A program made the position numbers and the translations under genes. A stretch of 64,000 nt of DNA from Tubulanus polymorphus (lineage: Eukaryota; Animalia; Nemertea). Under the pieces are notes generated by a model that worked only from the letters and a program-made list of their open reading frames with translations, was not told the DNA's origin and did not search any database. The DNA is taken from positions 17,057,653-17,121,652 of the forward strand of contig NC_134028.1 in NCBI RefSeq assembly GCF_964204645.1, written 5' to 3'. Shown here piece by piece: positions 1-30,573 of this stretch; position 1 is the stretch's first letter; every line of letters starts with the position of its first letter.

Positions 1-16
1 TTGTTTTTTTTTGTAG

Positions 17-3083: not shown

Positions 3084-3377
3084 TTTGCGACAATAGCACG
3101 AATGATTAGCGCTTGAATCGACGTATTGTTCTATTGTTATCGCAACATTGGCGAGATCGCTTGTCGGAACCTACGTCACGGCATCGGGCCACCTATCGGA
3201 ATTTTTATGAACTGGCGTTTCGGCAAATACCGTAAAAAGTGAAATTTCAACCACCAATTTGAAACCAATGATCAATTTATTTCTTGCTTAATTGTCTCTA
3301 TAATCAATTCTTTAATATAAAAAAAACTTCCGATGAAGTAAAATCGCGGATATAATTAGAGGTCATAGGACCTTTAA

Positions 3378-5770: not shown

Positions 5771-7234
5771 AATATAGCTGCCAAGCAGCGATGACGGGTT
5801 TTCTGCAAAGCCATTCAGAAAGATCGGAATTGTAGTAAATTGAAATATCGATACATAGAATAAAATGCATTGACAGATTCGAATCTAATATGCTACCACT
5901 GTGTAAACGTCAAATATGATTCAGCTTTGAAAAATACGTGGACGTACAATCAACAAATATTAATCTATTTGAGCAGGCATTTATTTTGGCATTCAAACAT
6001 CATGATACTGTATTATCACCATGCTTAAAAATGGATCTGTCCTATTAAGAACTCATCTCGCACCTGAGTCGATAGATTGAGTGAATTTACAGATAAGAAC
6101 GTATTATGATTTAGAATAGATTGAAGAAGTTAATGTTTTTATTGAAATATTTGAATAAATACATGTACATATATTGTAGTGTAGATTCAATCAATAAATT
6201 ATGAATTGATCTGGTCTGGGTTTCCGGCTGATGTTGATTTTGGCTTTTATGGATTACAAATTCTATAGTGATAAAAAATTGATACCTGCAACATGTGTGT
6301 AAATCAAACCTATTCCACTAGTTGCGTGTGTTTCCTAATAAACGGGAGAGTCACTCTTGTTCTGAGTTATTAGAAAAATAATGTTCATTTAGTTTTTTAA
6401 AATTCATTGCCTTTTTTAAAATTCTGTAATGATATTTGTTCTTTCCTAATTTTTATTACTGTATGAACCAATGATATGCTTTGTAAATATGATATAATAA
6501 AATAAATTTGAATTTGAATTAAATTTGAACATGAGAATCAGGCATAACTTGTGTTTTTTTTTAACTTGTCTTTTGTTAACAGTTCCAGAGTTTCAATTAC
6601 AATAATATTCAAATCAGCTAAAAAAGTACATAGGACTAAATGAAATGAACCGTTTAGTTACTGCAAACCTATTCCAGTGTTATGTCGATCGTGTTGAATC
6701 ACTTTGCTTGAGTTGAAAGAATCAGATCTTCTATGGTGCAACATCGGTCGAAGAGAGATATCTTGGTGTTGACTGTCCATCTAACTTCATGCGTTTGACA
6801 TTGGAATCAGCATCATACTCATTTGAACTGCAAAATATTCATACAACATGAAAAACCTACAGTACATGTATACAGTAATCAAAATTTCACCGATGTTGGA
6901 TATTTGAATAAACGTTAGGCTTATTTCAGTATTCTAAAGCAGGAAATAATAAACCCAATCAATAGGCCCTATTCCCATTGGAACAATTGTATAATGCATA
7001 CAGCTGTACCGTACACTTATCAGTCAAGAATGGAGAAATCGGTATACCAAACCTACGGACAGCAAAATGTACAGGCCTACAATGATTTCTGGTATACAAG
7101 CCGTGACCATATGAACGTTTTGGATCTAGGTTTGACTATTAATGTCAGCAGGTCAGAGAGGGCCTGGCCAAATTTAATCACATGGCTCAAATCAATTGGC
7201 CTTTCTGCGTTTGAATACTTCACTGTATTGTTTT

Positions 7235-8348
7235 AACTAGGGGTCCAGGGACACCATGCCCACTTGGGAAGTAGTTCCGAATGCTCAACAATCTAACAAT
7301 TTCAATATTCAACGCCCCCTGGTGACCATATTCAAAACCCAATGACCTTGAAACTCACCACAATCATAGAACATGTCACGAACTATAACTTTGTAATTGA
7401 TCATGGTAACAAAATATGCCTAGGTACCAATATAATAAGGAAATACTAAGTTATTCTACTATTCAACGCCCCCTGGTGACCATATAGAATAACTAATGGC
7501 CTTAAAACATGCCACAATCATAGATCATGTCATGAGCTACAACTTTGCAATTGATTGTGGTTACAAAATGTGCATTGATACGAATATAATATAGAAATAC
7601 TAAGATATTGTATTATTCAACGCCCCCTGGTGGCCATATACAAAAACCAATGACCTTCAAACTCACCACAATCATAAACCATGTCATGAGCTACAACTTT
7701 CCAATTGATTGTGGTAAGAAAATATGCTTAAATATCAACAATATAATGTGGAAAAACTTTTCCCACCTACGAATGAGTGCTTATGACACCAAGATGGCCG
7801 CCAATTGCGTCATAATTGGCTGATCAAAAATACCTGTCTCAGGTATAACACATCCCTTTTCAAAGAATACCCATCACAAATTGCAATGAGAAATGGCGAA
7901 CCAGTAGGGAGCTACAGCACTCCGAATTCGGGCCAAAATTGACATTTTTGGGCACTAAAAAGGTCATAGGACGGTCATCTTGAGTCCGATCGACCCAATT
8001 TTTGTTATGCTGATGGGCCCTGGGGGGATTCACATACATCCAAAAGATCAAGGTAATTGATCAAAGCGTCTTCAAAATTTACCTCAAAAAGTTCAAAAAT
8101 GTGTAAAAAGTGTTGATTTTGGCGAACAACAATGGCTGCCAGTCGGCCATCTTGATTCTGACAGGGCCAGTTTTTGGGCTGAAGATGTGTCTAGGGTAGA
8201 TACATGTGTAACCCAAATATCAAGACATTACATTGAAGCGTCTTCAAAACTTCCCAAAATAACTGGATTCCGTCTACAGACGGACGGACGACGGACGATA
8301 AGTGAACGCAATAGCCCGCTGGGACTAAAGTCCCAAGTGGGCTAAAAA
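7235..8348 (+). mobile_element. HINE/DINE-1-like non-autonomous Helentron with internal 154-bp repeats
   Basis: 5' AACTAG; subTIR GCCCACTTGGGA (7258) matches TCCCAAGTGGGC (about 8331). Three 154-bp units start at 7306, 7460 and 7614. (GGAC/GACG)n microsatellite at about 8279-8298, then terminal hairpin agcccgctgggac-taaa-gtcccaagtgggct and an A-run. Confidence 0.8.
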
Positions 8349-8611
8349 TAGGCCTATCGAGTGAATTAGTACATAGACTGAATTAGACTTTAGGCTAGTC
8401 CTGACCAAATCCTATCCATGTAATAATGGCACCAGTTATTAGTAACATCACTGTAGGGCCGACGAGAGGGGAAAAAGTTGTGTTTGTAGCACATAGGCAT
8501 GGTAGGCTTGTCGCACTCACTTAATACTTAAAACGCTGTTGTTACCTGTGACTGTACGGCGATTACTGCAGGTTAGCCATATGTGAGTACCTTGACGCTC
8601 AGATATGCAAT

Positions 8612-8681
8612 ATTGGGATTCGAAACCAAACGAAAAAAAACAAACCAGTAGTAGTCCAGTGATTTACCCACTGTGCCACAG
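8612..8681 (-). other. Degenerate tRNA-derived (SINE-head-like) sequence
   Basis: Minus strand has an A-box-like TGGCACAGTGG and a B-box-like GTTTCGAATCC at tRNA-like spacing; no intact cloverleaf. Confidence 0.4.
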
Positions 8682-11600
8682 AATGTAACTGCAGGTTAGA
8701 TGAAATTTGATTTACAAATAGCCTAGCCTCACCTAACCCAAACTCTGTTCTTTTACGCACGCGTGTTTGCAGATTACAGGAACTCACGTACGGTTAACCT
8801 GTGGAGATCACCATACAGTCGGTAGGCTTTCTGAGCTTCCACACTTCACAACCGAACCAACTGACCAATCAGTATATTTATTCCCAGTATGCACCAACCG
8901 GCACAGGCCTAACACTGTTTGTCGACTGTGTGTACCGTAGTAGGCTATCGATAATCACCTGATACTTTTCTGTCGTTTGTTTTCTCTCTGAGACGAACGT
9001 AATTCTAATAGCCCTCCGCGACTCAACGACCTTGATTTAAACTTGATCAAGTCAAAATCTGTTTATTGACTCTTTTGGTTACATGAACTGATCAGCAATA
9101 TACTTAAATGAAATAACCCGAATAACAACAAATCAAAAATATTAAAGAGGTAACCAACAAATGCCCGTAAACCTGTCAGACTCGCGAACGCCGGACTCGT
9201 AAACTCTTGGACTCGGACCCGCTGAGCAATAAATTCATAAAATTGACTTTGAAATTAATTGTGGAGAAGAGAGGGAATAATTCGATAGCTCTTCCTCATA
9301 AAGAAGAGAGAAATTTCGGACAAGAAAACACAACATGGCTACTAATTGAACGGAGCCAAATTTCCGATGTTTACGGCTCGACAGTGCCTTTATAACGTGG
9401 ATTTATCAAAATTCCCATGCAGTATCTGGAGATTGAAGTGGACTGAAGGATGTCATACGGATTGTATCGGCGACAGCGGTAAGGTAAGGAAGCCTTTACA
9501 CTTTTAACAAAAACTGTGTGGAAAAGGGTAAAAAAAATAATAAATATAGCTGCAAAGCAGCGATAACGGGTTTTCTGAGCAGGCGTGCTATTCATAGTTT
9601 GAAAAGTGGATAATAAAAATATATCAATACGGGATACGCATTTGACGTGTCAAGTCACACCAATGCGGTTTAACATAACATAATTTATAGTTATAGTCAA
9701 ATTGGGGGTTACTCGGGTCGTTTATTGTCTGCGGAGTCGAGTAGATTGGTTACCCGTCTGTAACATTGGTTACGGAAACGACTCGTCAGCTTGATGAGTT
9801 GTATGTATTATGATTGTGCGCCACCTGCATCTTCCGAAATAATGTTCAATTATTTGAAGGGAGGATTGAAATCAATTATCAACGTACATCTGAATATGTA
9901 ATAGTCCTTAGTAACTTTCTGTTGCAGAGGGCATAGAAAAGATTTTGAAATTATTTAATTAAAATATAAATTTTACGAAAAATAAACTATTATGGTCAGT
10001 ACAAATTGAAAATTCATAGTGTATTTTTAAGAACAAGCTTACATAGCTTACAGAATACATCACGTACATTTGAATTTTACAGGTGATGGGTAAAAATTAA
10101 CGTGTGACAGAAAAAAATGTAGTTAATTATTTAACAATATCGAAATATGTGCTCTCATTTTAAACTAATGGAGTGATACGCAATTAATCACATGGCCTGT
10201 ATTAAAAGATAGAACATACAAGTCGAAACATGTGAACAGAAAATAAAACTTTGATGTCAGTGACCAGTATCGAATTACACAACGACAATTGACTTTAAAC
10301 TCAACAAACATTATTAAAGAATGTTTCAAACAAAATGCTTTATATAACGACATGAATAAACTTGTTTTACAAAACAAGAAAGTACATTTTGAACTTTTGA
10401 ATGGTCGAATCCCATTTATTCACAGTAACCTGTGATGTGGCGATCCTCGGAGCCATCATTCTTGATGACGTCACTAACAAGTGGTCACGGCCGTCGCGTG
10501 CACTCATTTCTTTGAAAATCTAGCTTCCTCGCGGAGCGGGACCTGGTGACGCTGCGCCCCACCCCCTTCGCCCTGAGAAATATCTTATTCCCAGTCAGCA
10601 AAGACAGGTTCTAAAGATCATAGAGTGCATCGCTGGAGGGTTTCCGATCCAATTTGAATTGGTGCGGTGGCGCTCTCAATGCGGAAGTTTTTGTGAATTT
10701 TTCAGTCGGTGACGGACGTTTATCGTTGTAAGTGATGTTATATGTAAAAAATGCAGGGAAACCTATCTCAATTTGTTTTTAGCGATGCAGCGGAACTAAT
10801 AAGGAACATTTTGGGTAAAAGTGCAGATCCGCACCTCTCCGCGTAAACGGTTCAATCAATTACATTAAATATCAATGTTTCAGATTCAAAATTCAGCAAT
10901 CCAGTACATTGCCTGTTTAATTCAAGATATCTCCACTAGAAAGATTTTAGGGCGCTATTGCACTTTCGTACCCCCCTCCCAAAATTTTTTATTTCTGTAT
11001 ATTATTAATCAGGGAGGTCTGTAGAGTCAAAATAAATTACTTTTGACAAAAAAAATTAATTTTTTCCTAGCCAAAATTCTGATAATTTGGGGCCGATTTC
11101 CTCGATCCAAACCGATGGGTCGGCCATGTTTCCGCACTAATTACCACCTAAAAACATCTGAATAAATGTATCTCAATAAATTTAATTGAATTGAATTGAT
11201 AAAATTTCGTTTTTGGGCATATAACTTTTCTTCATCAGAACATCTTTAGATCAATAGCTAAGTATGAAAATAATGCAAACATACACGTCATTTTCAGAGA
11301 TGGTTATGTTTGAAAACATGGCTTTTGCAAAGTTTTAATGTCATGACATTTCAGTAGAGGGTTAGAAACTTTGATTGACATCCAATATGGCGTTGTTGAC
11401 GTCGCGAATCGGCGATTTTACACGCGATTTAGGGCCAAAATATCTAAATTTTAGTCAAGTAAAAGTAAGTTTTTTGGGTCAAAAGTTACTGATTTTGAAT
11501 CCCTAGACCTTCCTGATGGCGCTAATGAGAAAGATTATTCTATTATTTAGGCCTATTCAAATTTTCTGTCCACTGCCACGTGGAAATAAAGACCCAGTCA

Positions 11601-11899
11601 AAATTGCGCATCACGCTTTGACGAAGAAATTGGTTCTAGGCTATAAATTTTACGACTCAAACGAATCTTTTCCTCAACAAAGCCGCTTTTAGTTTGATGC
11701 AAAATGAAATTTGCTTTTAAAATGTGTAACTAGGCCTAATCAAAAGGATATTTCAAAAGCAAACTTTGCCGGGCCAAGAGCCATATTGAATTCAATTTTT
11801 TCCGAACCATTATGCCTCTTTCATCATAACATTATTTATCCTATTTCAAGATCTTAGGCCTACAAGTAGAGAGAGGGCCTACGTTGGGTTCAAATCGGA

Positions 11900-12420
11900 A
11901 TTTTAAGATTTATTTCATTTAATTCCAGGTTTTCACTGTAGATTATCAAAGACATGTGGCGTTGTGGGAGTTCATACTTGTTTGATAATCCATCATTTGT
12001 AAGTGTAAGGCTATTTGAGGGATTCGAAACCGACATTTTGTAAATTTTGTAGCTTTATTACGTTTAATTCCAGATGTTTATCATGACACGTTTCATTTTG
12101 GGGGTTTGTCAGCGAGTTTGTATGCTGTCGGCAGAAGTAGTTTGATAATTCGTTTCATTCAAGTAAACAGCTATTTGAAGGATTCGAAACAGAAATCTGT
12201 ATTGTGAATTTTTTAGTTGTATTTTGTTTGATTCTAGGTGAATAGGACATGATTCATTTTGGGAGTTTGTCCGCGAGTTTGTATACTGTCAAATGAAGTT
12301 TCTTCGTCAATTTGTCGTATGTAAGTATCAATCTATAGGTTATATAGGCCCTATTAGGGGTTCGATACAGAAATTTGGTGAATTCCTCAGATTTATTTTA
12401 ATTTATTCCAGGTTGTTATC
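11900..12420. repeat. About three diverged tandem units of 160-180 bp
   Basis: gctatttgagggattcgaaac (12010), gctatttgaaggattcgaaac (12171) and cctattaggggttcgatac (12350); attccagg-like motifs recur at 11922, 12067, 12231 and 12406. Confidence 0.55.
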
Positions 12421-12542
12421 AGAAAAATATGTACTTTATTTCATAGGTTGGTCTTTGATTGAAAACTAAAAATGGATGATAGTTCTAAATTTGATGTTGA
12501 TTCACATGACCAATCTAGTAAGTATGGCTCACTCGTCTTTTA

Positions 12543-13823
12543 GCAAAAGGTAGAAAGTTTCTTTTGTCCAATGTCGTATAGCGCCGCTGCGGTCGAAAAT
12601 CGAACTAATCTGTCAAGTCGATAATTTTCTAAGTGAGAAGACGCCGCGTTCAGTTCGCGGTACACTGTACGTACAGTTTTTCGATACACTGCTGTTCAAC
12701 AAATTTGTTTTGAAGTTGAAGTTCACAGCGCGCTATTCAGTTTTCAGAAGTAGAGGGCTAAAATAACATCATTCGTAAGATCTCAGATTGAATATTTTCA
12801 TCAGATTCAGAGCTCAGTTCATTGTATAAAATGTGTTATTTCATGTATTAGACAGTTACTTCTATTACTCTGACAGGAGTTTTTATGTCATAATTTTTTT
12901 ACCTCATGTGTAACTCAATTATAGCAGAGTTGATAGTTTAATTACCAATTATTAATTTATAAATAAATTAGTATTATTAATCTAATTATTGGATTGATTA
13001 TTATTAAGAGATATGACATTATAAACATATATATAATGCACAGATATGGATGTTATATATAATGCAAAGATAATGTATTTCTACTCGCATAGAAATGAGA
13101 CTAAAGTTTTCCTGTTTGGATATTCTAAAAGCTTATAAGTCCTTTGCCAAGGATATGAATGGTTTGTGATGATATTATGTTAACTAAATTCATTTGTTGG
13201 TTGAACGATTTCAATTAATATCGCAATATTTAGCATTCGTGATATAATTAATATGATAGAGATATGGCCATTTGTCTATTGTTTATGTTAGCAAAAGATT
13301 GCATTTGATATAGAAGGCTTTAAAATGTTTTGATGTATGGTTGAGATTTTCAAAATAAATGTTATGCTTACATGAGATAATTGGAACTAGATGTTTTATT
13401 TCATTTTTATCAAGTATCGATGGATGAGAAGTCTTTCGACGATGTGCAGTTAGCCCATTAGAGTTTGCCTTAAAATACTTTACTCTCAGTCTAAGCTGAA
13501 TTTAATTCATACCGCCGTTACAGTACCATAAAATTCACACAAAATCTTTAGCGTCATTGGAATAGGACGTCCCCTGTTTCACATCCGGCAGGTGTGTTGA
13601 CGGTGGGTAAGTTTAATAAGGTACACCAAATCTATTAAAACGATCGCTATTTTAAAATCAAATCATCCCGAAGAAATTGGGGATTCGAACCTATCGGATA
13701 TATACTGGTACTCGGCGTCTTTCCACTTAACAAAACATCGTCAATAACATTAGTTCTTATTATTGCTAAGTAGCGGCGCTACCGGTACTGTCGATCGGAC
13801 ATTAGAAACTTTCTACCTTTTGC
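12543..13823. mobile_element. Non-autonomous TIR transposon with 9-bp TSD (Mutator/MULE-like)
   Basis: Perfect 20-bp TIR GCAAAAGGTAGAAAGTTTCT (12543-12562 and 13804-13823), extending imperfectly to about 50 bp. TSD CGTCTTTTA at 12534-12542 and 13824-13832. No ORF. Confidence 0.85.
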
Positions 13824-16014
13824 CGTCTTTTAGAATAAGAGACCTATTGCATTAATCCTTCAATTCAAGTTGCTATACAACCTTTTATACAGATATTTAC
13901 CTTATCAATATAAACATGTATTTGCCATTAGCCATACAATTCAGTAAAACTTTTCCCGTCCAGATTTTGAAACATCATTTGACTCAATTTTTCCTCCTAG
14001 AAAATTGCTTTAGCTCATTCCAATGTTCGCAGTAAAAGTGAATGTAGCATGTATGATTCCCATCCATCAATTTTGTCTTGTTTCGTATTTTTAGCGAAAA
14101 TCTCGAAAAAGTCTGACGTCGAGGCAGGTGGTGGCCAGACAAAGACATATTCTTGGGAAATATTTAAAGACGCATGGCAAACACACTTATTGTTAAATTT
14201 TTTCCTATCCTTATTTTGAAATTGAAGTATTGTAATAAACTATTGATTTATTTTTGTTGATCAACGCAACTAGTTTTGTTGTTTTCTTTCTTAATTTACA
14301 TTTGAATTGGATGGTTATCTTGCGTAGGAGTCAGTTTGTCATCGAAGCAATACAGTCCAACTTGTTGACGTCTCAGATGCAGCGGGGCAGGGCGGTCATT
14401 ATATTGTGGACTTATACAAATTACACTTACACAGCCCAACGTGTTTCAGTGTGTAAACTCCGTCGTACTCCGCATTATAAGACAGCGAGGAATTGAGTTT
14501 TAGTCACCTGAGCCCTCGGCTTGATTCGACCAAAAAGATCTTAACTGACTTCACAGAATTTGATTATGAGTCAAGGATTTTCTAAATTTCTGAATGCTTT
14601 CTCTGGTTTTAAGATCAATTCAAATTCAATCTTCAAAATATTTTATTGAAAGAAATTTTACTGAAGACAGATTTTGAAATGAAGGATATATCCAGGCAAA
14701 TAATTATAGCAAAATCAACTGATGATCATCAAGGTGAAGTTTTCATTCATCTTCGGCTAATTTGTCTACCCCTGATGATTGAAGCATTTTGGTTACTCGC
14801 GCCAATTAGTCAGCCACAGTCGATTTTCATGCCATCTGACCTCTTTCCATCTGTAATTAAGCAATCAAATGTAAGAATTACTTAGGTAAGGAGCGAAATA
14901 ATATATAGATATCTTAGGAGACTATTTGAAATCATGAGTTTGTTGTGAAAATCTATTACTACAGTCTCGTAGAGCATAGACACCAAGCCACGTGGCATTG
15001 GTATTTTAAGGGATATTCAGTTTACTCCAAAACAAGTCAATGATTAACATTAAAAAGGCTTCATATCAAGGGTATGTCGCAGGACTCGTGACGCCCATGA
15101 ATTATCATCCCATAATTACAATGAATCCAATTCTGCATGTACGTTAGCACGACTGATTACTAATCCAAATATTGCATTACAAAAAAAAAAATTACGCAAA
15201 ACGTCAAGTACTTACAGCATCTGAGACAGTTGCGCTTAAGTTAGCGTGTTAAGTTACGTCTTTGGCTGTCAATGTCGAAAAAGCCTAATTAGAAACATAC
15301 ATTTGCGCACTGTGGTTTAATATTCCTGCAAGAATCCGCAAAGGAATTGAAGACCGTAGTGCCCAGTTCATTCCACGAATAATAGCTGGAAAGAAAGTAA
15401 TCAAAATAAATTGTCATGCACATTCAGTGTAAACCAGGCCATAACTAGCTGCTATTAAGGCATTCCACTGACTGGCTCTACCCATTATATTTAGGGCCTA
15501 AATCTATTCTAGGCGCATCCCCCCCCAAAAAGCTAGGCATTAAGTAAGTAGCCAACAATGATCATTGCTTCACCGAGTAGGCCTACTCATTTGCTACCAT
15601 ACTCATATTATTAAAGAAATCATTTAATACATTCCCTGGTTAACGGATTCTCACCTTAAAATACATCATAGAACTATAACGGAATATCCGTTATAGATAC
15701 ATAAAGTCCGCTGTCGTTGTCATCGATACGAGTCGTCAACTGAACGCGGAAGTAAAATTCCGTGTGAAAATTCCTACAATTTCTGTCCATATCACGTTGA
15801 TTTGACCCCGAAATCTTCAGGAAATGTAGCCAACGTAAATTGATTTACGAATAGAATTAATCAATTGACTCATTTTAGAAATCATGGTTTCATGAAGTTC
15901 ATTAAAGTCCTAAAACTCGCGATAAATTTAAGCCGGAAATAATTTCAACCATCCACCATGTTGTTTCATTAATAAAACAATTGTTGCGCGCCGGCGCTGC
16001 ACTGTGATAATGCA

Positions 16015-16087
16015 TGGTTTCACTAGGATTCGAACCCTCGACCTCTCAGTTTGGAGTCAAACACCTTATCCACCATGCCACAGGACA
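16015..16087 (-). pseudogene. tRNA-derived sequence (tRNA pseudogene or SINE head)
   Basis: Minus strand GTCCTGTGGCATGGTGGATAAGGTGTTTGACTCCAAACTGAGAGGTCGAGGGTTCGAATCCTAGTGAAACCA has A and B boxes and a T-arm, but broken acceptor and anticodon stems. Confidence 0.55.
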
Positions 16088-16443
16088 GGACGCTGTTTTT
16101 ATCATTAGTGGGAGTACCATACAGGGCGAGTCGCGATTGCTACTATCATCCGGTGTTATCTTTCAGTAAGTAATTTTAAGTTTAAAATAGGACGGAGAGT
16201 GCATATGTATAATCTACGCGGAGCGAATGCGTGTTATATTACTATCAGAATTCTACATTTCAATTAGAAGCAGTTAGTTGTCGAATCTGATAGATGAATT
16301 TTATGTGCGAAAAAAGTGGAAAATATGTAAATAATAATAATAACAATCAACAGAATTACAAAAGGGTTTTCGACGAAAGTCAGAAAACCCTAATGATAGC
16401 GCGAATTTCAATAGGGTTTTCTGTAAAGAAACAGAAAACCCTC

Positions 16444-19400
16444 ATTAAAAAAGTTCATCAAAGTGCTGCTGCTTATGGAATTTACATAAAATCAAATTAT
16501 CCTGAATTATATGAAAGTCAATATATTTCTTTTAGAGGTGAAGATGTAGTTAATGATTTTTGTAACAAAATAATTGAAATAGAAAGTGATTTTGCAAGAT
16601 TATTAATCAAAAATAAAAGAATAGTTATGACAAAAGAAGATGAAATTGATTTTAATTATGCAACTCATTGTTGTTACTGTGAAAAACGTTTTTATTCATT
16701 TGATAAAAAAGTTAGAGATCATGATCCTTTAAATTCAAAATATCGTGGAGCTGCTCATGAAGATTGTAATTTACAAGCTAAGAAAGTTAATTTTGTACTC
16801 ATATCATTTCATAATTTATCGGGCTTTGATACCCATCTATTTATAAAACAATTATCAGGAAATTTGGGGGCAATTAATCAAGAAATAGAAGAATATAATG
16901 CTATGAATGGTGCAAATGTAAGAAAATATGATTTTAAACTATTAGCTAAGACATCTGAAAATTATATTTCATTTCAATTTGGTTGCATTAGATTTTTAGA
17001 TTCTTATAGATTTCTAGCAAGTTCATTAGATAATTTAGCAAAAAGTTTAGTTGATAATGATTTTATAATTACTCAACATTATTATCAAAATGAACAAGAT
17101 TTTAAATTATTGAGATTTAAAGGCGCAATTCCTTATTCATTTTATAGAACACATGATGTTTTTTATGTAACAGAATTACTAAAAGAACAATTTTATGATC
17201 AATTAAAAGAGGAGTATGTGAATGATGAAGTTTTTAATAGAACATTAAATATTTGGAACCATTTTAAGATAGAAAATCATGGTGAATTAGTTGATCTTTA
17301 CTTGAAATCAGATGTTATGATATTGGCTGACATATTTGAAAAATTTAGAGAAGTTAATTTAAATCATTTTAATGTTGATCCTTGTTATTGTTATTCAAGT
17401 CCTGGTTTAACCTGGCAATGTGGTTTAAAATATACCAACGTAGAATTAGATTTATTTAAAGAACCAGACATGGTTTTATTATTTGAAAAATCAATTAGAG
17501 GTGGAATTAGTGGTGTTATGGGAGATAGACATTTTAAAGCAAATGATGAATATAAATTATTATATATTGACGCCAATAATTTATATGGTTGGGCAATGAT
17601 GCAACCTCAACCATACAAAAATTTTATATTAACAGACGTTGAAAATGATGATAAAACTAATTGGGAAAGTGCAATTATGAGTTTAGAAGATGAAGCATCA
17701 ATTGGTTATTTCTTTGTAGTTGATTTAGAATATCCTGATAACATAAAGTTTAAAACAAGAAACTTACCTTATTGCCCAGAACATTCAACGTAGCTGATAG
17801 TTATTTAAGTGAATACCAGAAAAAAATAAAACCGGAAGATCATGTTTTTACAGAAGAATTGATATTAACACAAAATAATAAATATAATTATATTGCTCAT
17901 TATAGAATGTTAAAATTTTATCTAAAACAAGGAATGAAATGAAAGAAAGTACATAGATATATTGAATTTAATCAATCGAAGTGGTTAGAAAAATATATAG
18001 ATTTCAATACTCAACAGAGAACCATATCGAAAACAGATTTTGAAAAAGATTTCTTCAAATTAATGAATAATAGTTTTTATGGTAAAACATGTGAAAATAT
18101 TAGAAATAGAAATCATATTGAATTAGTAAATAATTCTGAACGATTAACACATTTACAATCGAGCCCTAGACAGTAAGGAAATAAAAGATTTGAAGCAGTA
18201 AAATTAAAAAGAACGTCAATGAAATTTAATAAACCCATATTCATTGGTTCGACTGTTTTAGAAATATCAATATTATTAATGTATGATTTTTATTATAATG
18301 TTTTACAACCACTTTTTGGGGAAAAACATATAGAAATCTTATATTTTGATTCTGTAACAGCTGACACCCCAATATTATTAAAATGCAATGATAAAATATT
18401 GATAAGAAGAATTTCAGAAATAATTCCAAAACAAAATGTACGTTATATTTCATATGGTGAAAAAGAATTAATACAAATAAATGGATTTATGGATGTATGG
18501 ACAAGAAATGGATGGAAAAAATTAAAGAATATAATTAGGCATAAAACAAATAAGAAAATCTATAGAGTTAGAACTAAATTAGGGTTTGTAGATGTTACAG
18601 AAGATCATAGTTTAATTAAACGAAATGGTGATGAAATAAAACCAACTGATATAAAAATTGGAGATGAATCATTACATAAAAGATTTTTCCAAAGAATGAA
18701 TCATATGTCATTTGATGAAATAATTGATAATATTTATAATATAGAACCCGAAACATAAGAAGAAAAAGAATATTTTATAAATGGATTTTTCATGGGAGAT
18801 GGTTCAGCAGGTGTTGTATAATTATGTTTGGGGTAATAAATATTGTTGGTATTTATGTAATCAAGATTTGAAATTATTAGAAAGAATACAGAAATACTGT
18901 GAAGAAGTTTACCCAAATAAAACATTTAAAATCATAGATTTTATGAAATCATCAGCAGTTTATAGAATACATGTAAATAATACTAAAGATTTTGCAATTA
19001 AATATAATGATGAATTCTATATTCATGCAATAGTGAAAAGTAATACTTCAACTAAAGAAAAGATAGTTCCAAATTATGTATTAAATGCATAAGATAATTT
19101 AAGAAAATGATTCTTCATTGGACTCTATGCCGCAGATGGCTCAAAAAACTATACAAAACAGAAAACTATATCTTTGACACAAAAAGGAAAAGTTGCTATA
19201 TCCGGATTGAATATATTATGCAATTCATTAGGTTTTAATATGAATATTGGATTGATTAAATCTAAACCAAATTGCTTTAATTTAAGCCACACAGAAAAAG
19301 ATTTAACTGAAGAAGTTAGAGATTTATTTGAAATATATAACCCAACAGATTATGTTTATGATTTAGCAACTGATGATGAAACATTTAACTGTGGATTTCC

Positions 19401-19872
19401 ATTAATAGCAGTCAATACGGACGCGTACATTCTAAAAATCAAGACAAATGACATAACAAAAGACTTAAAAACATTAAAACATCATTTTGATTTTAGCAAT
19501 TATCCCAAAGATCATGAACTATTTAGCAATGATAATAAAAAGATTCCTGGTAAGTTTAAAGATGAATTAGGGGGTGATGAAATGATTGAATTTGTTGGGA
19601 TCAGAAGTAAAATGTATAGCTATAGAACAAAAGATCATGAACCTAAAAAGTTAAAAGGAATAACAAAACATGTGGTTGATAAACATATAGAATTTCAAGA
19701 TTATATAAAGTGTTTATATAATTCGATTGTAATGAAACATAAAATGAATTGTTTAAGATCAGAAGATCACGAGATGTACATTAATGAAGTTGAAAAAACT
19801 AGTTTAAATCCATTCGACGATAAAAGATTTTTTTTGGGTGATGGAATAAAAACATTGCCTTATGGTTATTAA
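16444..19872 (+). pseudogene. Protein-primed DNA polymerase B, main part (EndoVII-like insert, Exo II/III, Pol A/B/C), containing an intein
   Basis: CCYC..VRDHD..YRGAAHEDCNL; FHNLSGFD (Exo II); RFLDSYRF; LYLKSDVMILADIFEKFR (Exo III); IRGG; YIDANNLYGWAM (motif A); KLMNNSFYGK (motif B, about 18058); YFD|TDA (motif C); KIPGKFKDE; KMY; KGI; DDKR. Several stops and frameshifts between 17790 and 19110. Confidence 0.93.
18351..19416 (+). mobile_element. Intein with LAGLIDADG homing endonuclease (about 355 aa, decayed) in pPolB motif C
   Basis: Block A SVTADTPILL; block B VDVTEDHSL; endonuclease motifs INGFFMGDGS and FFIGLYAADGS; blocks F/G DYVYDLATDDETFNCGFPLIAVN followed by +1 Thr. Excision restores ILYFD-TDAY. 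Three in-frame stops and one +1 frameshift inside. Confidence 0.92.
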
Positions 19873-20165
19873 AACATGAAATCAAGATCATCATACTCGA
19901 AATCACTACTGGTTTCTTCATTTTTATTTAATTGTTTAGGTTCTTCCATTTCATTTTTCTCATTTAAATAGAGTTCTACATTGTACCACATTTCTCGCTT
20001 TCTTTGTTTCTTTTTGTTTGTTAATTCATCAAATGGAATTATAATATCGATGTTTAAAAGATTTACAATCTTATTTAAAAAGAATTCATAATTAATTGAA
20101 TCTGTTATTTTATTATCCACATAATATCTTAATATTTTTTTGAATGTTTCTTTTATATTTTCCAT
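19869..20165 (-). CDS. Hypothetical Polinton protein
   Basis: AT-rich ORF converging on pPolB with overlapping stop codons; acidic C-terminus. The true start may lie further upstream. Confidence 0.5.
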   Translation of the reverse strand: MENIKETFKKILRYYVDNKITDSINYEFFLNKIVNLLNIDIIIPFDELTNKKKQRKREMWYNVELYLNEKNEMEEPKQLNKNEETSSDFEYDDLDFMF

Positions 20166-20284
20166 ATCTTCTTCTGTTAATTTAGGTTTTTTTATAATAA
20201 TCGTTAAATAATAGATATAAATACATTTTCTTTTCTTGTGTGTTAAATGTTGATTGAATAATTGTTTTTATTATATCTTATTTA

Positions 20285-21207: not shown

Positions 21208-21790
21208 TTATTTAGGAAAAATTGTATTAGAATTAATTTTTAGTGATGAGAGGTAATTTTTTTGTGCTATAAATAATGGTAGAATTAAAAGAATACAGAA
21301 TATTTGTTGATTCAAGAAGCTTACTAATTATAAATCGCATAATTTATTAGTACAATTAGATAGAGAATTAAGAATTGTGTAGATTTAAAATTAGTAAATA
21401 TAAGTTTATTTAATTCTTTTCATAATATATCGAATAAAAGTCTTGATCATTTAGTTTTTAAAATTCATGTTAGAAATTTGAATAAATGGTTTCATCTTTA
21501 TCTAAAACCAGGATTATATAATTTAGAAACATTAGCGCAGGAAATTAATAGAAGAGCTCGTTTAAAGGGTAACTGACACTTTTTCAAGAATTTTCTACTT
21601 TTGGAATAAAATGATTCATTATAGTATACTATTGAGATTGACAATTTGAAAGATCGGAAAAAATTTCAATTTATAATGATATTTGATGATTTTGATTTTC
21701 GCGCGCCTCGTTTTGTTTACATCGTTCCGGAAAAACACGTGTACTGCGGGCTATTTATAGAACTACGTCATTAAAGGCAGCGACTCAATA

Positions 21791-22746
21791 ATGGCGTCTA
21801 TAGAAATGAATAGAGAATCGGACAATGGGAGCGATTCATCTGAATTTAATGCCACTTCGGCATCAAATTCAGATGAATCGCTTAGTGATTTTGAATGGCA
21901 GGAAACAAGTGACGAAGAGGAATTAATGATCGGGCCGTATTTATACGAACCAGAGGCAGAACCGAAGCGAAACGGCGATGGACCCAGACCGGAGGCAGAG
22001 GGAGACGACGACGAAGGCCGAATAAACCGTTTGGAGCTGGATAATCTGAATCAGTGGTATGTTCATATAACAATTAACTTAAAAATATATATTTTAAGAT
22101 TCATTAAGCCGTAGATTTAATTATAGGTTTTTGAGCTTTGTTGGCGAAGTTGAGAGAATCTTATCATGTTCGTTTCAAAAGCTCAGTGCGATTCAACGTC
22201 GTTGTGCTGGCACTGCTGGACTATTCTTGCACTGCATTGCATCAGCATAGGCTTACAACAAGTAGATACCTATATCCATACCTTAAAAATATTTTTATGG
22301 ATAATCTTTTTAGGTGCCAATGTGGACACTGTCAGATCTTAGAGACGGAGCAAGAGTGTGTGTGCTGTATGGAGATTGATGTCGTGAAAAGAAGACTGGA
22401 ATGGGTTTGGGTTTGGGAGGAGTCCGGACAAAATGAAGAGACCTGCATGACGGACACAGCAGCTTTCGCTTCGATCTGTTTGAACCCTTGGGTCCTGCAG
22501 CTGATGTGGACCGAATTTAAACGGTAGTACGGACGGAAAAGTTTTGAAGGGCCAGCAAATGCGAAATTAAGACATGTAGCATACAGATCATTTGGTCGGT
22601 GGTGTTGGGGATATTTGGGCAAGGAGAATAGGAGAATTTTGCCTGCTTGTGTCGTTTCGTGCATCCGCGCACATTTCCCTGAGGACGGTTATGAGGAGGA
22701 CCATGTATATAAAGGATTTCGTAATGTGTCGATTGATGGACCATAA
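21791..22746 (+). pseudogene. KolX accessory protein (P2X7 C-terminal-like), 2 exons, one premature stop
   Basis: Exons 21791-22056 (PYLYEP..LNQW) and 22314-22746 (CQCGHC..ECVCCMEI..CMT..FASICLNPWVL..KR*YG..LRHVAYRSFGRWCWGYLGKENRRILPACVVSCIRAHFP..YKGF). TAG at 22525. Confidence 0.82.
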
Positions 22747-23425
22747 TGAATTAAAATAGAAGAATTCAACTTAAAAATTCTAACGATGTTTATATATTCT
22801 TCTTAACTTGTGCTTTTCTTACAGGTATTTTAATAAAACAATGACATCGCTTAGATATAAAATATAAATTTTATTGCATATTTATAATGTATAAAACGTT
22901 TTGCTTTCAATCCATTGAGTTCTAATTTAAACATCTGATCGCAATTAATTGTTCAAGTAAGGAGCAGTTTTGTTATGCTTAAGCAGATCAATAATTTTAT
23001 TTTCAGTTTCCTATCAATTTTCTACAGATCATTTATTGAGTGAACTGGTGTCTACAACTTTCACTTAGACTTGTAGTTTCACCATTAATCTTCCCATGCA
23101 AATGTAGATATTTTGTCTTTATCACCTGAAAAAGACATGAAAAATATTTTAGGTTGAATTATAAAACGAATACAAGATATATCATGATTCCTGATGTTGA
23201 AATAAAACGTACTCGGTATCTTTGAACTGCCAAATTTCAAATATATTTCTTCGTACATTATTTTTCGAATTAAATCATCACTTCGGGTCATCATTTTTTC
23301 CGCAGACCTAAAAAGAATGTATTTTTTAAGAAAATCAATATAATTGTCATGTTTTCATGTGCATGTATTACAATTTTAAATGAAATTATACCTTCAATAC
23401 AAATGTCAAGAGACTTACCATTCAA

Positions 23426-26400
23426 TCATTTATTAGTTTTTTTGAATCTTGTCCTGTGCATTGCGATGGCTTCCTCTTTGGTGATTTTTTCTTTGTTTGA
23501 TGTGAGATTTGGTGGTACTGTGATTATTTTCCTCGGCCTATCTGCTTCTTCCACGTCCTCGAGTATCTTGTTCCAGCAAATGTCGACATATTCTGAAATA
23601 AAAAACACTGTTAGCCAACAATGTGTTTGGTAATGAATTATTTACATAAGTTTAGTTAATGACTTTAATATTCACCATAAGTGGCATCAGTGAGTAGTTT
23701 TCGTAATGTGTGGGTGTCCTTGTATTTTGGATAGACAATGCTATATTTTTTTGTCCCATCAATCTTTGTGCCTTGTATTCTGTCACTATTCTCATTGAAA
23801 TGTAGGGCAGCTATTTGTAACCTAAGAGAAGACATAAGACATTGATATAAGTCTTAGCAGGGACATATGTATGAAAAAATAGAAATCACTCAATTGTTAT
23901 ATACTTTGCTTACCTGCTTGTCATTCCATTGTAAGAAAACTGAATCATCTTCGGGGCAAAATGATTGAATAAACTGTGAAGACACTCCAGTTTACTGGTC
24001 TGGCCGTATGGTGACATCATCTTCACTTTATTTATAACCCGTGTATTCGTCAGATATTTTTGCATAGAATCACCAACCAAAGATCCTGTAAATAGTACAT
24101 CAAATGTTTCATCACATGAAATTAGATATAATTTCTGATTCAGTAGTTGCAATAGATAATATCTTACCTGGATAAAGCCATTTCTTTTCTGATGTTATGG
24201 GTTCATGGCTGCAGTCTTCATGATTGTCTTGGATGTGTTTGACTGCTGATGACCATTTTTTACTGATGCCTTCTTTATCCCCGGGTGATGATGATGCAGC
24301 GCACCAGTACAAATGACATTTTATTGACTTTATCCAATCCTTGATTTCTTCACATTCCTTTTTCCTTGACATTATTTCTAGTTTCTTAGTTATACCTTGA
24401 AATGAAAAATTAGTATTTCGTCTCATTTTTGATTCCGTGAGTGATATGTAAATTCTACACAAAGAATTTTTGAACTTACTTTTAACAACGTGCCAGCAGT
24501 CATAATAGTGAGCTACATTCCAAACTTCCCTTGTCCATTTAGTAATTTGAATGTGCATATCCGAAATAAATGCCATCACTTTCAGGTTTCCTATCTGTAT
24601 TCGGCAACGCTTTAAGCCTTCCAATTCCATTGCATTTGAATTCTTTACCTCATTCGACTAAAAAAATCAATAACAAAGATAGACGTAAACCTTTCTCTGT
24701 TTTAAATTCAGGAAAAAGCAAGATTTTATGGTTCTGACATACCTGAACAAGTTGAAACGCGATCACTTTGTTAGTTATTAAATCCATCAGAGTGTAACTT
24801 CCAAATTTAGCAGAATGACCCATAGAATCGCAACGTCCATCACCAGCAAGCAATCGTGGCCCTGGTAATTTGTTGACAAGTGCCGATCTACTTGCTTCCC
24901 ACACAGATGAAACAGCATCGTGAAGATAGTTTTTCTGGTACCGGAAATATGTCCTGGTACTCTGAGCCTTTAAACTGTTGGTTGGCTGGACCATTCAGTA
25001 GTTTCACCACAATTCAAACAATTTGTTCTGACAGTCAACATTGTTCCTCTGTGCCTCTTCCAAACTTGGTTCTCTCTTCCACAGCGCCGGCAGTATTGTA
25101 ACAGCTGCAGAATTGCTGACTGGAACACAATAATCTTGGTTTGGTCTTTATACGACTTATCCGATTCATCACTGCAATGATAAATGAAGTTTTATACAAA
25201 AGAAAGGAAAATATCATTCATGATTAAAATATTATACTTTACTAACCTTATTTCTTCAAACATAACTCTGCCTTCAGAATCATCCTCAGAGCCACTGTCC
25301 ATCTCTGACTCTTCTGCCGAATCTGGATGATAGTCATCATCTTCACTGTCACTCCCTAAATCTGATTCTTCTCCAATACAAATGGCTTTTGAGGTATTTG
25401 TAAGTTCTTCAGCAGGTCGCTTACATTGAATACCAATGTTTCGAGCTAAAACAGACCAATCACAGTAGTAGGATTAAATAGATAGGGAGAATAGATGATA
25501 TCATAAAAAACCCCATAATACAAGCCGTACCATAATACGATATAGACTGAATAAAGAATACTCACTCAATGCATTTTCCTGGATTCCAACTGAACGCTGA
25601 GCCTTAAATGGCGTTCTGTAGATAATCTTAGGTTTGATGCGGTACACAATTTTGGTCTTCACCTGTGCAGTTTCTTTCAGCGTTTGCATCCCTAGAAAAA
25701 ATTATCATTAAATAACATGAAATTCAATGATTACAGTGATATATTCAAAACTGAATGACAATGATACACCATACCATCATGAAAATCCTACCTCGAGATT
25801 TACAATCCGGTTCAGCCTGCACAGCAAATTCTCTTGTCGCCTCGAACTCTGATTTGATACCGGGTTCCGCATACACTTCCCCGCCGTCATCTTCACCAGG
25901 TTTTGCATAATCTTCAACCAAATTTGGTTGAAGATTATGCAAAACCTGGCTCTCAGTCTCAGCAATGACTCGCCGTCTCTCCCTCTTCTCAAACACTTTT
26001 CGTCCAGGCTTTCGTGGTGGCGAGAAGAAATCCTCTGGTTGAGATGTAGATTCAGGGGTTTCTATCACAGTGTGGATCGATGGCACGGCTCCTTGTTTCA
26101 GCAACAATCTATTTCAAGCAAAAGGCAACCGTTAATTCACAAGGCTCGTGAAATATTCATTTTGTTATTGTAGTTAGTGAGTGAAGTAAGGCACTCACAA
26201 TGACAATAAAAGCCTATTGTACGATGGCCAATGCACTGTGGCCTATAGTAGTAGTTCAATGAAAAGATGTTTCTATTGTCACACGATGTAAGCTGACCTA
26301 GAAGGCATGGTTTTACAATCACGCTTAGCAAACAAAAGTTAAACGGCATTTTGACATAAAAAATTATGAATTGGATACCGCGCGTGGAAAAAATAAATTT

Positions 26401-26736
26401 TATTGATTTGAATTGGACTTGAAAATGCGACCCTTTTAACAGTGATTTTCAAGCCCATACAATAATTATTCTCAAACCATGTCTCGAATAAATGTTAAGA
26501 TGACTGAATGAAACTTACCTCTTTGCAAATTGTGCATCATACTGCATTTTATTAACGAAATCATCGTTGGTAAAATGCCGGTAACACACGACGCTATTCG
26601 ACGTTGGGCCGCTCCAATTCAATCGCTTTAAACCTACAAAAGAAGCCCATTTTTCTCGAAGAACAGGATTCTTCGGAAAAAGAAATATACCCCTATCCGA
26701 ATAATCGCACCCAAAGCAAACACAACGATTTGGCAT
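23426..26736 (-). pseudogene. Kolobok THAP-DDE transposase, multi-exon, probably internally deleted
   Basis: THAP domain MPNRCVCFGC..FPK..W..VCYRHF..LKQGAVPSI; catalytic LAGDGRCDSMGHSAKFGSYTLMD, MELEGLKRC..FISDMHIQI..YDCWH, HLYWC, QTSKLECLHS..FAPK, LHFNEN. The frame jumps near 24965, where a conserved segment appears to be missing. Confidence 0.85.
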
Positions 26737-27503
26737 TTGAGAAAAAGCAGTGAAAACACGCCGAGTAGTAAAAACGCAACGTTATCTCATAGAAGAGAAT
26801 TTTCAGTGCTCACTTTATTGACGTCACAGCGCCGGAGATCGACGGAAATTGCCGATGATTTCTAACGCGATGTATACAACGAAATGAGGTCAAAAATTGT
26901 CTTACAAAATCACGATTTTCGCGGAAACTACACATTTTTGAACAGAACTATTTCAAAGTCTTCCTTAGTTCGATAGAACTTATCGAATTTTGAAATAAAA
27001 AAAAAGTGTCAGTTACCCTTTAAAAATGGGTGCAGCTGCTAGATTTGAAATTAAATTTATTAAAAGTGATAGTTCGAATAAGGTAAGAATAAAGTTAACT
27101 AATGAACAACATATATTTCTAGTAAGAAAACCTTTAGCTAAACTGTTTGGAATTCTTCCAGATAGAGATTATTCAAGTATTGAAACTTATACAAATTTAA
27201 TGACTTTTACACACTTTTATATTTATTGCAATTTAATTGATCCTACAAAAACATTTGAAGCAACTAAAGTTATAATTTGTAATTCTAGTATATTAAATAT
27301 TATACCATTAAAAAATGTTTAACAATTTGGAACGCAAATAAATTACAATTTAGCTGTATGTGATTTTAAACCTTGTATTCCACATTTCAATAATTTCAAA
27401 TTAGAAATAAGAAATCATAATGGATACTTAATTGATTTAAATAATTTCCCTGTAATTTATGAATTAGTTATAAGATGTAAATAATAATTTTTTCACTATA
27501 TAA

Positions 27504-27850
27504 ATGAAAATAACTGTTGGACCGAGCATATGTTTTGGATTTGATTTTAAACGTGAGAAAGAAATGAAATTTAACATTACTGATGTAATTACACATATTG
27601 AACATATTGCATTTTCTAATGAAACAACATTTGAGTATGAAAAAACAATAGATAAAGAATGTAGTAAAGATTACTAATTTAATTAGAGAATCTTTAAGAT
27701 TTTATGAATTAGATGAAGATTTTATCATTGTTGATATTAAAAGAAGAAAACTGAAATATATGAAAATGAAACTAATAATACTATAAATGTTGAAATAATC
27801 ATAAATAAGATAATTAAATATTTTGAAGATAGTAACATTTTTGATTAATA
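27504..27850 (+). pseudogene. Small hypothetical Polinton protein, frameshifted
   Basis: TATAAATG start, MKITVGPSICFGFDFKREKEMKFNITDVITHIEH..; fills the gap between neighbouring genes. Confidence 0.45.
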
Positions 27851-27851
27851 A

Positions 27852-28072
27852 ATGAGTGATAATAAGTGGATAATAACTGGTTTATATAATGGAGCATTAC
27901 TATCAGTTGGAACTGTTGGTTATTCAATGGTTTTAAAAAAGTATTTACAATGGGAAGAGTTAATGTTGACAGATTTGATATAAATGATATTTTAGAATTA
28001 ACGTTAGCAGTTACTTTATCTAATTTAACTATTGATTACTTGGAAAAACAAAAATATATTCCTCTTATATAA
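27852..28072 (+). pseudogene. Small hydrophobic Polinton protein, one frameshift
   Basis: MSDNKWIITGLYNGALLSVGTVGYSMVLKK / ..DRFDINDILELTLAVTLSNLTIDYLEKQKYIPLI; ATAAATG start. Confidence 0.6.
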
Positions 28073-28096
28073 ATGCATAATCTTCTTGCTAAATAA

Positions 28097-28520
28097 ATGG
28101 CAATCTGCAATTATAACTATTATAGGATCGGCAATTGTTAACGCTTTAGCATTTACTGGTGGTGGTTATTTATTTAAACATATTGATAAAAATAGTTCAT
28201 TATCAGAACAAAAAAGACATAACTTAGCATTTGAGAAATACAATAAAGCAGCAGAAGAATATAGAGAAAAGAGACAAAACTATATGGATTACATCAATAA
28301 AGAATTATATGATCAGAAGATTTCACATAGAGATTTTCAATCAGTCGATGATGCAATGAGTTTATATAACGCAGTAACAAATAAAGAAAGATTACATCTA
28401 TACAAGCCTAAATTATCAGATTATTATACACCAAGTAAAGAACAACAGAAATATGAAATAATTTGGATTTTAGGTGGAACAGTTATTGTTATATTTGTAG
28501 CATATAAATTTACTAATTAG
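28097..28520 (+). pseudogene. Polinton protein with N-terminal hydrophobic helix, coiled coil and C-terminal TM segment
   Basis: MA/SAIITIIGSAIVNALAFTGGGYLF..EQKRHNLAFEKY..PKLSDYYTPS..IIWILGGTVIVIFVAYKF. A +1 frameshift follows the ATAAATG start. Confidence 0.65.
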
Positions 28521-28539
28521 TAATTTCTTTGCTAAATAA

Positions 28540-28974
28540 ATGGAGGATAAAGTTGATAATATTGATATAATTCCTCATGATATAAATAAAACTAAATTCA
28601 AAACATATTTAGAAAAAAAAATATAAGAATTTGAAAGTGACTTAAAGATAATAAAGAAGAAATATATAAAAAGTAAAATTATATATTATTTTATTATCAG
28701 TGGTTCAGTTACAATTAGTTCTGTAATAACATTTCTAGCAATATTCAGTCCATTAACACCTTTAGCTATATCAATTGGCGTGTTAGGATTAAGTTCAAGT
28801 GTGTTAACTGGTATAAGTTCAAAATTAAATATAAAAAGTAATAAAGAAAAAATTAAAACTAATATAAAAGAAATTAATAAATTAAAAAATACATTAGATT
28901 ATATAATAAGTTTAAATGGTAATATAACAGTTGAAGAACAAGATAAATTATTAAAAGAATTAGGTAATTATTAA
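28540..28974 (+). pseudogene. Two-TM-helix membrane protein of the Polinton, one premature stop
   Basis: Single frame MEDK..LEKKI*EFESDLK..IIYYFIISGSVTISSVITFLAIFSPLTPLAISIGVLGLSSSVLTGIS..GNITVEEQDKLLKELGNY; TAA at 28624. Confidence 0.65.
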
Positions 28975-28990
28975 TTTGTTTATTATATAA

Positions 28991-29282
28991 ATGGTAGATA
29001 GTTTTCCAAAAGCTTTTCAATATAATAAATCAATTAAATATATTATTCCTGCAATAGATTTTAATAAAGATATTTCATATAGAAATGAAGTTTTAAATTC
29101 ATTAATTAATTTAGATATTTATGTTACTGAAACTTATAATTTTAATGTTAAAATGGAAAATATATTTCATGTGTATACAATTAATTTTAAAAATTTAAAT
29201 GAGGCAAAACAATGGTTATTAAAATCTAATATGAAGTACTGGCAGAACCAATTAAATTTTGCTGTTTATTGCGCAACAACAA
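28991..29282 (+). pseudogene. Uncharacterised Polinton protein, truncated at the 3' end
   Basis: TATAAATG start; ..NMKYWQNQLNFAVYCATT, then an abrupt switch to Helentron B sequence at 29283. Confidence 0.6.
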
Positions 29283-30573
29283 CCTTATTAGTTCCGCTGC
29301 ATCGCTAAAAACAAATTGAGATAGGTTTCCCTGCATTTTTTTTACATATTACATCACTTACAACGATAAACGTCCGTCGCCGACTGAAAAATTCACAAAA
29401 ACTTCCGCATTGAGAGCGCCACCGCACCAATTCAATATGGATCGGAAACCCTCCAGCGATGCACTCTATGATCTTTAGAACCTGTCTTTGCTGACTGGAA
29501 ATAAGATATTTCTCAGCGCGAAGGGGGTGGGGCGCAGCGTCACCAGGTCCCGCTCCGCGAGGAAGCTAGATTTTCAAAGAAATGAGTTCACGCGACGGCC
29601 GTGACCACTTGTTAGTGACGTCATCAAGAATGATGGCTCCGAGGATCGCCACATCACAGGTTACTGTGAATGAATAGGATTCGACCATTCAAAAGTTCAA
29701 AATGTACTTTCTTGTTTTGTAAAACAAGTTTATTCATGTCGTTATATAAAGCATTTTGTTTGAAACATTCTTTAATAATGTTTGTTGAGTTTAAAGCCAA
29801 TTGTCGTTGTGTAATTCGATACTGGTCACTGACATCAAAGTTTTAGTTTCTGTTCACATGTTTCGACTTATAAATATCCAATTTGTATGTTCTATCTTTA
29901 AATACAGGCCATGTGATTAATTGCGTATCACTCCATTAGTTTAAAAAGAGAGCACATATTTCGATACTGTTAAATAATTAACTACATTTTTTTCTGTCAC
30001 ACGTTGATTTTTACCCATCACCTATAAAATTCAAATGTACGTGATGTATTCTGTAAGCTAAGTAAGCTTGTTCTTAAAAATACACTATGAATTTTCAATT
30101 TTTACTGACCATAATAGTTTATTTTTCGTAAATAAAATTTATATTTTAATTAAATAATTTCAAAATCTTTTCTATGCCCCCCTCTGCAACAGAAATTTAC
30201 TAAGGACTATTACATATTCAGATGTACGTTGATAATTGATTTCAATCCTCCCTTCAAATAATTATAATAACATTATTTCGGAAGATGCAGGTGGCGCACA
30301 ATCATAATACATACAACTCATCAAGCTGACGAGTCGTTTCCGTAACCAATGTTACAGACGGGTAACCAATCTACTCGACTCCGCAGACAATAAACGACCC
30401 GAGTAATCCCCAATTTGACTATAACTATAAATTATGTTATGTTAAACCGCATTGGTGTGACTTGACACGTCAAATGCGTATCCCGTATTGATATATTTCT
30501 ATTATCCACTTTCCAAACTATGAATAGCACGCCTGCTCAGAAAACCCGTTATCGCTGCTTTGCAGCTATATTT
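29283..30573 (-). mobile_element. Second copy of the 5' 1.3 kb of Helentron-like element B, inverted and truncated
   Basis: Near-identical reverse complement of 9542-10804; for example ccttattagttccgctgcatcgct (29283) versus agcgatgcagcggaactaataagg (10781). Confidence 0.9.

Follow-up and report, generated by a model that had tools for sequence, protein, structure and literature searches.

The window (the whole stretch of 64,000 nucleotides analysed here) carries a decayed LAGLIDADG intein at motif C of a protein-primed family-B DNA polymerase (pPolB). The overall account that we judge probable is of such an intein lying in a multi-copy Polinton/adintovirus-type element of a very likely animal genome, and belonging to a family that likely homes between Polintons. 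In intact copies, the conserved blocks suggest that the intein would splice itself out by the Ser1/Asn/+1 Thr route, leaving a restored D-T-D motif for catalysis. The endonuclease, with its two motifs, would cleave motif-C alleles of related elements that lack the intein, and these alleles would then be converted when repaired from a filled copy. Such a family would have entered protein-primed polymerases once, in ancient times, from an RNA-primed viral PolB, most likely that of a giant virus, and would have moved between Polinton lineages afterwards.

Intein, host polymerase gene, and surrounding element

The coordinates of all features are listed in Table 1. The intein was confirmed as a full class 1 LAGLIDADG intein, now a dead copy; the class 1 route of protein splicing uses Ser1/Asn/+1 Thr chemistry. 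It is 1,066 bp long (355 codons plus one nucleotide), is flanked by ILYFD and TDAY, starts with SVTADTP, finishes with GFPLIAVN, and splits motif C of the host protein (YFD/TD) at the slash. It was an in-frame insertion in a conserved host motif, missing from homologues, and its frame was broken by later mutations. When the two halves were scanned with X placed at stop codons, the N half matched TIGR01445 (NCBIfam intein_Nterm) with 33.1 bits (cut-off 24.5, E 8e-8) but no Pfam family, and the C half matched Pfam LAGLIDADG_3 with 24.6 bits (cut-off 22.5). Blocks A, B (VDVTEDH), and F/G were identified together with both LAGLIDADG motifs (NGFFMGDG and IGLYAADG), which hold their acidic catalytic residues. 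A sequence-only reading had proposed an intein at this site, with splicing blocks and two LAGLIDADG motifs; both points were borne out by these above-cut-off profile matches, the blocks, and the empty homologues described below. The signature D-S-[VI]-x-x-D-T-P occurred once across the six frames of the window. The residue preceding the terminal Asn is Val, as opposed to His, Lys, or Ser in relatives.

Stops were located at 18756-58, 19090-92, and 19108-10, and a frameshift near 18810-18825. With three stops and one frameshift, the window intein cannot be active. Its GC content (0.251) equals that of the extein (0.249), which fits long residence. In a PDB search, the family profile matched PI-PkoII and I-DmoI. 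The unaltered sequence of an intact relative (P0132) was predicted to fold with pLDDT 90.8 from a 46-row alignment, and the best structural matches of this fold were the archaeal homing inteins TliVMA, PI-PkoII, and PI-PfuI (E 2e-17 to 2e-14). Among viruses, the fold was closest to inteins from the PolBs of a phycodnavirus, Pandoravirus, Megavirus, and Marseillevirus. An earlier fold of this type, from a shallow alignment (pLDDT 44.9), was discarded.

Table 1. Features of the polymerase gene, its intein, and the neighbouring element (positions counted from the first letter of the window)
Feature	Position	Strand	Evidence
N-terminal part of the pPolB gene (first ~555 residues), upstream of a 10.6-kb insertion	4410..5769	+	tblastn with P0005 (residues 1-555); junction
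Nest of inserted repeats dividing the pPolB gene	5770..16442		Repeat comparison; junction
Main part (remainder) of the pPolB gene, broken (frameshift near 17790, stops), intein inside	16443..19872	+	Pfam DNA_pol_B_2
LAGLIDADG intein at PolB motif C, degraded (3 stops, 1 frameshift)	18351..19416	+	Motifs, TIGR01445, Pfam; empty site in relatives and same-species reads
N-terminal splicing region (block A Ser1; block B TEDH at 18597-18608)	18351..18614	+	TIGR01445 above cut-off
First LAGLIDADG motif (INGFFMGDG)	18777..18803	+	Motif reading
Second LAGLIDADG motif (FIGLYAADG)	19114..19140	+	Pfam LAGLIDADG_3; motif reading
C-terminal splicing region (block F VYDL; terminal Asn; then +1 Thr)	19354..19416	+	Motif reading
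VLTF3-like ORF, weak	19872..20267	-	Pox_VLTF3 E 7e-5, 23 bits (cut-off 25)
Penton-like gene fragment, transposon-split; likely resumes near 27020-27500	21334..21573	+	Weak tblastn, E 0.006
Kolobok-like DNA transposon	21566..27019		TTAA target duplication, terminal inverted repeats, domain matches
Further decayed Polinton-like ORFs, last one ended by repeat at 29283	27467..29305		ORFs; no family match above cut-off

The host gene encodes a protein-primed PolB (Pfam DNA_pol_B_2, PF03175, E 7e-16). The element appears to be a decayed copy of a multi-copy transposon of the Polinton/adintovirus type, and repeats have truncated it. A Pfam scan of 31 ORF pieces of the window found no integrase. Genes for a capsid, an ATPase, or a protease were likewise not detected in the window, nor were genuine termini. 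The penton-like fragment weakly matched the putative penton ORF of an adintovirus-like IMG/VR contig (L175, 1-16463), which encodes a double-jelly-roll capsid protein, an A32 ATPase, a weak adenain/protease match, and an intein-free pPolB 33% identical to that of the window. The label Polinton thus rests on the polymerase and on this relative with virion genes. The VLTF3-like ORF lies tail-to-tail with the polymerase and may be an additional link to nucleocytoviruses.

Inverted copies of 1.3-1.5 kb at 9332-10804 and 29283-30831 mimic Polinton termini, and were rejected as such because one arm lies inside the insertion that splits the pPolB gene. Members of one repeat family, which has hairpin ends, lie at 5770, 9542, 16391-16442, and 30538-30625. 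The Kolobok-like transposon at 21566-27019 contains a THAP gene, a fragmented Mutator-like transposase and, on the opposite strand, a P2RX7_C-like gene. A similar second copy of it appears within 1-3200. The right side of the neighbourhood is bounded by a 31-bp tandem satellite, which starts at 31671 and was followed to 36000, with unchanged composition to the window end (64000).

The host genome is very likely animal, in agreement with the origin first assumed for the contig. This rests on the THAP (E 9e-10) and P2RX7_C (E 6e-10) genes of the transposon nested in the element, the nested transposons themselves, the satellite, and the deep read coverage of the window in two studies of the same species; the intein, too, was covered by contigs from two runs (X1 and X2). 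Host transposons lie inside two genes of the element, which suggests long chromosomal inheritance. If the contig came instead from a protist or another contaminant, the intein would sit in a protist Polinton-like virus. A further run under the same species label (X6) gave no contig matching the window, which would favour that reading, but this run was small and filtered. The nested THAP and P2RX7_C genes and the coverage argue against a non-animal contig, as does, as a lead from few records, the finding that the nearest clusters of the nested transposase are eukaryotic, with Mollusca, Arthropoda, and Chordata the commonest; we give such an origin hardly any credence. Another intein-bearing pPolB (P0319) is filed as a hypothetical protein on a 2.5-kb contig of a bacterial MAG from a bivalve symbiont, and is likely host-derived contamination.

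Distribution of the intein family and empty alleles

Among the 120 best long homologues of the polymerase, three carried an intein domain; PF03175 was matched by 6,116 of 7,992 scored candidates. Further intein searches yielded 107 new proteins, six of them pPolBs, while none of 136 further new representatives was classed as pPolB save one short fragment resembling the window family. After removal of near-duplicates, nine pPolB inteins of 337-354 aa were obtained, all at the common site and all retaining blocks A, B, F, and G and both LAGLIDADG Asp residues. Scans with the single proteins P0012 and P0132 found no loci. With the family alignment, viral and metagenome scans gave no pPolB carrier in 122 parsable loci among the matches listed (best 80 per scan), and a genome scan gave none in the five loci checked of ten.

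The final intein tree (LG+G4, 52 rows, unrooted) left out rows outside ~310-385 aa, near-duplicates at a 75% threshold, and 21 long-branch or redundant rows. All nine pPolB inteins formed a single clade (100/100), with SH-aLRT values of 99 and 98 in two other trees. The sister of the window intein was P0012 (100/99), with 64.6% identity in the intein (224/347) and 54.1% in the extein (407/753). The family also reaches a very distant type of pPolB (P0124), whose intein is 44-49% identical to the others while the exteins are 25-27% identical over partial alignments. In both comparisons the intein is thus more conserved across lineages than its own extein. Meanwhile, the closest intein-free polymerases (P0003-P0005, exteins 69-70% identical) have an uninterrupted IMYFD-TDSY, and all four exteins closest to the window (these three and P0276, ~70%) are empty. 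The spread is patchy: 10 carriers among 50 exteins require seven changes, all forced by starred branches, and 7 carriers among 54 in another extein tree require six, with gains and losses indistinguishable in both trees. The single clade, the patchy spread, and the distant carrier changed the interpretation from a one-off jump to a Polinton-wide family.

Filled and empty copies were also examined in raw DNA reads of the same species (run X5; ~12% of the run, 150-base reads, likeness threshold 82%). On positions 18050-19750, 4,590 reads were placed, with 50, 988, 1,553, and 1,999 in the identity bands 99+, 95-99, 90-95, and <90, respectively, and this spread indicates a multi-copy family. Fifty-four plus 48 reads fuse both flanks through nine letters coding for T-D-S; they are precisely empty alleles, from the window family or close ones. 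Mean depth was ~209 over the intein and 463 and 503 over the flanks, a ratio of full to empty copies that is only rough because related families may add to flank depth. At the three stops, 242 of 245, 173 of 186, and 163 of 164 reads had a letter other than that of the window stop, and 159 of 240 differed in length from the window at the frameshift. Most of the damage is therefore confined to the window copy; reads of 150 bases do not reveal whether any single copy is intact. Many intein-bearing copies and precisely empty alleles thus coexist in the same species. Together with the P0017 cluster, these reads provide the intein-free and intact-looking relatives that the sequence-only reading had called for.

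Probable homing, inheritance, and likely origin of the family

The P0017 cluster comprises 136 members on contigs of up to 1 Mb, with full and empty alleles together; among 15 members listed, seven are full-length and filled and 4-5 are empty. Full and empty exteins of this family are 97-98% identical, and those of the P0427/P0430 pair are 99.2% identical. With the window family, full/empty pairs are known in three families. Where homing co-converts the flanks, differences pile up close to the site of insertion. Within the P0017 family, full and empty alleles differ at 9 of 26 residues near the site and at 13-22 of 1,165 elsewhere (Fisher test, p < 1e-8 for P0251/2/4 and 3e-6 for P0255). Further, the flank of the full allele matches a sister family at up to 20 of 26 residues, as against 17 of 26 for its own empty alleles. 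This pattern is the trace expected from homing with co-conversion. No flank exchange was seen in the window copy or in P0427/P0430. Among empty alleles of the cluster (P0250, P0251, and P0255), the motif-C flank takes three forms, in one of which Cys replaces the motif Thr, and such variants may possibly represent escape from the homing endonuclease.

These patterns suggest that the family likely spreads from copy to copy among Polintons by homing, which could take place among copies integrated in a single nucleus or among free genomes as they replicate. An older passenger, which entered the pPolB lineage once, was precisely lost many times, and homed little or not at all between lineages later, would look partly alike. 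In AU tests, intein trees with an extein-like topology were not rejected (p 0.31 and 0.17), and two pairs of related carriers (the window with P0012, and P0017 with P0130) are found in intein and extein trees alike, which leaves room for old inheritance with repeated loss. Such a passenger, however, would hardly be expected to be better conserved than its exteins across lineages, to keep its endonuclease motifs intact in nine of nine carriers, to be filled and empty in three families, or to show divergence concentrated at the site with a flank closer to a sister family. We consider this history unlikely and prefer homing between Polintons. A bolder version of homing, put forward tentatively and held at somewhat less than even weight, is that of a cycle in animal nuclei, where a LAGLIDADG intein derived from giant viruses would act as a natural gene drive among endogenous Polintons of several animal lineages, converting empty alleles and selecting cleavage-resistant sites. 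If true, metazoan genomes would for the first time be shown to harbour an active intein population.

Outside pPolBs, the site of the family is motif C of RNA-primed PolBs, presumably the insertion site known as "pol-c". There, 120 of 122 parsable inteins (164 loci, among the matches listed) lay in PolBs that score best against a giant-virus reference, the type being assigned by the best score among five references, a coarse test. Many of these, and the top viral matches, were GVMAG contigs, and named relatives included the Mimiviridae virus ChoanoV1 and mimivirus. A subfamily containing ChoanoV1 and T4-like phage polymerases has the same short C-terminal ending as the pPolB clade. The two were grouped with 71/83 in the careful tree and with 95 (starred) in one quick tree, and the grouping was absent in another. 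The originally proposed giant-virus kinship is accordingly upheld in part: apart from pPolB inteins, its closest relatives come mainly from giant-virus PolBs, while the grouping with a giant-virus subfamily varies among these trees and nesting inside a single giant-virus clade is at most a possibility. It is well supported that the pPolB inteins originated among viral PolB motif-C inteins, and a giant-virus donor is likely, with the direction drawn from diversity rather than from rooting.

The sequence-only reading had also envisaged a separate jump from a giant-virus PolB straight into the polymerase of the window element, during co-infection of an animal. The mimivirus PolB intein shares the site and the block-A signature (42% identity in the N half), the matches listed outside pPolBs are mostly giant-virus inteins, and the weak VLTF3-like gene adjoins the polymerase. 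Nevertheless, the closest relative is a pPolB intein (P0012, 65%), all nine pPolB inteins fall into a single clade, identity to the best giant-virus intein reaches only 41-47%, and GC content equals that of the extein. A direct jump is thereby largely refuted, and we rate its chance as very slight. A little more credible, though still improbable, is a history of homing among Polintons in which the source was a phage or some other PolB not of giant viruses, or in which Polintons themselves were the donors. The tree is unrooted, and the T4-like gp43 inteins P0138, P0139, and P0141 (PHROG 262) have the short ending G-x-P-L-I-V-x-N and group with the nearest giant-virus subfamily; set against this are the far greater diversity among giant-virus-type PolBs and the single weak match (27%) among 50,697 phage records.

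Relation to known systems

Neither the type of intein nor its site is new; what is likely new is the class of host protein, together with a location that is very likely in chromosomes of an animal and with population signs of homing. The motif-C inteins of nucleocytoviruses (mimivirus, P0407; ChoanoV1, P0363) are alike in the D/TD site, block A (S-V-x-x-D-T-P), the VDVTEDH block B, two LAGLIDADG motifs, and a length of 351-359 aa, with 37-42% identity in halves. In contrast, the host of the window family is a protein-primed PolB with YFD, YMD, or YLD in place of YGD, in an integrated Polinton; the family is a separate clade and has many copies within one nuclear genome.

The accessible part of Green et al. 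(2018, PMC5784728) counts 67 viral DdDP inteins, confines viral polymerase inteins to large DNA viruses and unclassified viruses, and describes metazoan genomes as intein-free; by title, its reference list includes Bigot 2013 on inteins of invertebrate iridoviruses. The view that metazoan host genes lack inteins still stands, since the gene that holds the present intein is proviral. Gallot-Lavallee et al. (2023, PMC10710043) reported that endogenous viral DNA polymerases of algae and a labyrinthulid contain inteins, likewise in viral polymerase genes within eukaryotic nuclear genomes; as far as that text goes, the hosts there are non-animal, whereas here a multi-copy Polinton offers empty alleles as homing targets. 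The words "polinton", "animal", and "metazoa" do not occur in that paper.

Jeong et al. (2023, PMC10748475) described HNH and VSR nuclease insertions in Polinton pPolBs, which similarly are selfish-looking nuclease domains in a Polinton polymerase; in the part available these are HNH/VSR domains, unlike the complete intein at a catalytic motif found here. The main text had no match for intein, homing, LAGLIDADG, or Hint. One sentence in the consulted part of Krupovic et al. (2024, PMC11161782) suggests, citing Jeong 2023, that homing-endonuclease insertions in Polinton pPolBs stem from intein invasions. The window element resembles adintoviruses (Starrett et al., 2021, PMC8502044) in its weak PF03175 match, as in the Beta class in the portion seen, and in that its relative L175 adjoins a capsid, an A32 ATPase, and a weak adenain match; inteins are unmentioned in that text. 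"Intein" was absent from the text of the supplements of PMC8502044 and PMC10748475, where motif searches missed control polymerase motifs too. The accessible portions of PMC12220804, PMC3671162, PMC11296320, and bioRxiv 10.1101/299784 held nothing on pPolB inteins. The literature covered, which did not extend to subscription papers, Repbase, or InBase, contained no description of inteins in protein-primed polymerases or in animal Polintons, and novelty is for that reason likely rather than proven.

The significance is bounded by the proviral nature of the gene and by the inteins already known from integrated viral polymerases of algae. Within these bounds, Polintons would give complete homing inteins a way to enter animal chromosomes and multiply there. 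For an intein in a Polinton polymerase to persist, the polymerase has to be made, spliced, and required by the element, and homing requires filled and empty elements in one nucleus. The intein is therefore a usable marker for asking whether Polintons are active and whether they encounter giant viruses or each other within one cell. With full and empty pairs that are 97-99% identical, homing, co-conversion, and target-site escape can be measured directly.

The same intein family was also observed in type II topoisomerases and T4-like phage polymerases (P0123, P0157, P0454, and others), with two parsed intein copies in P0123. In all of these proteins the intein adjoins an acidic motif of catalytic type, on one side or the other.
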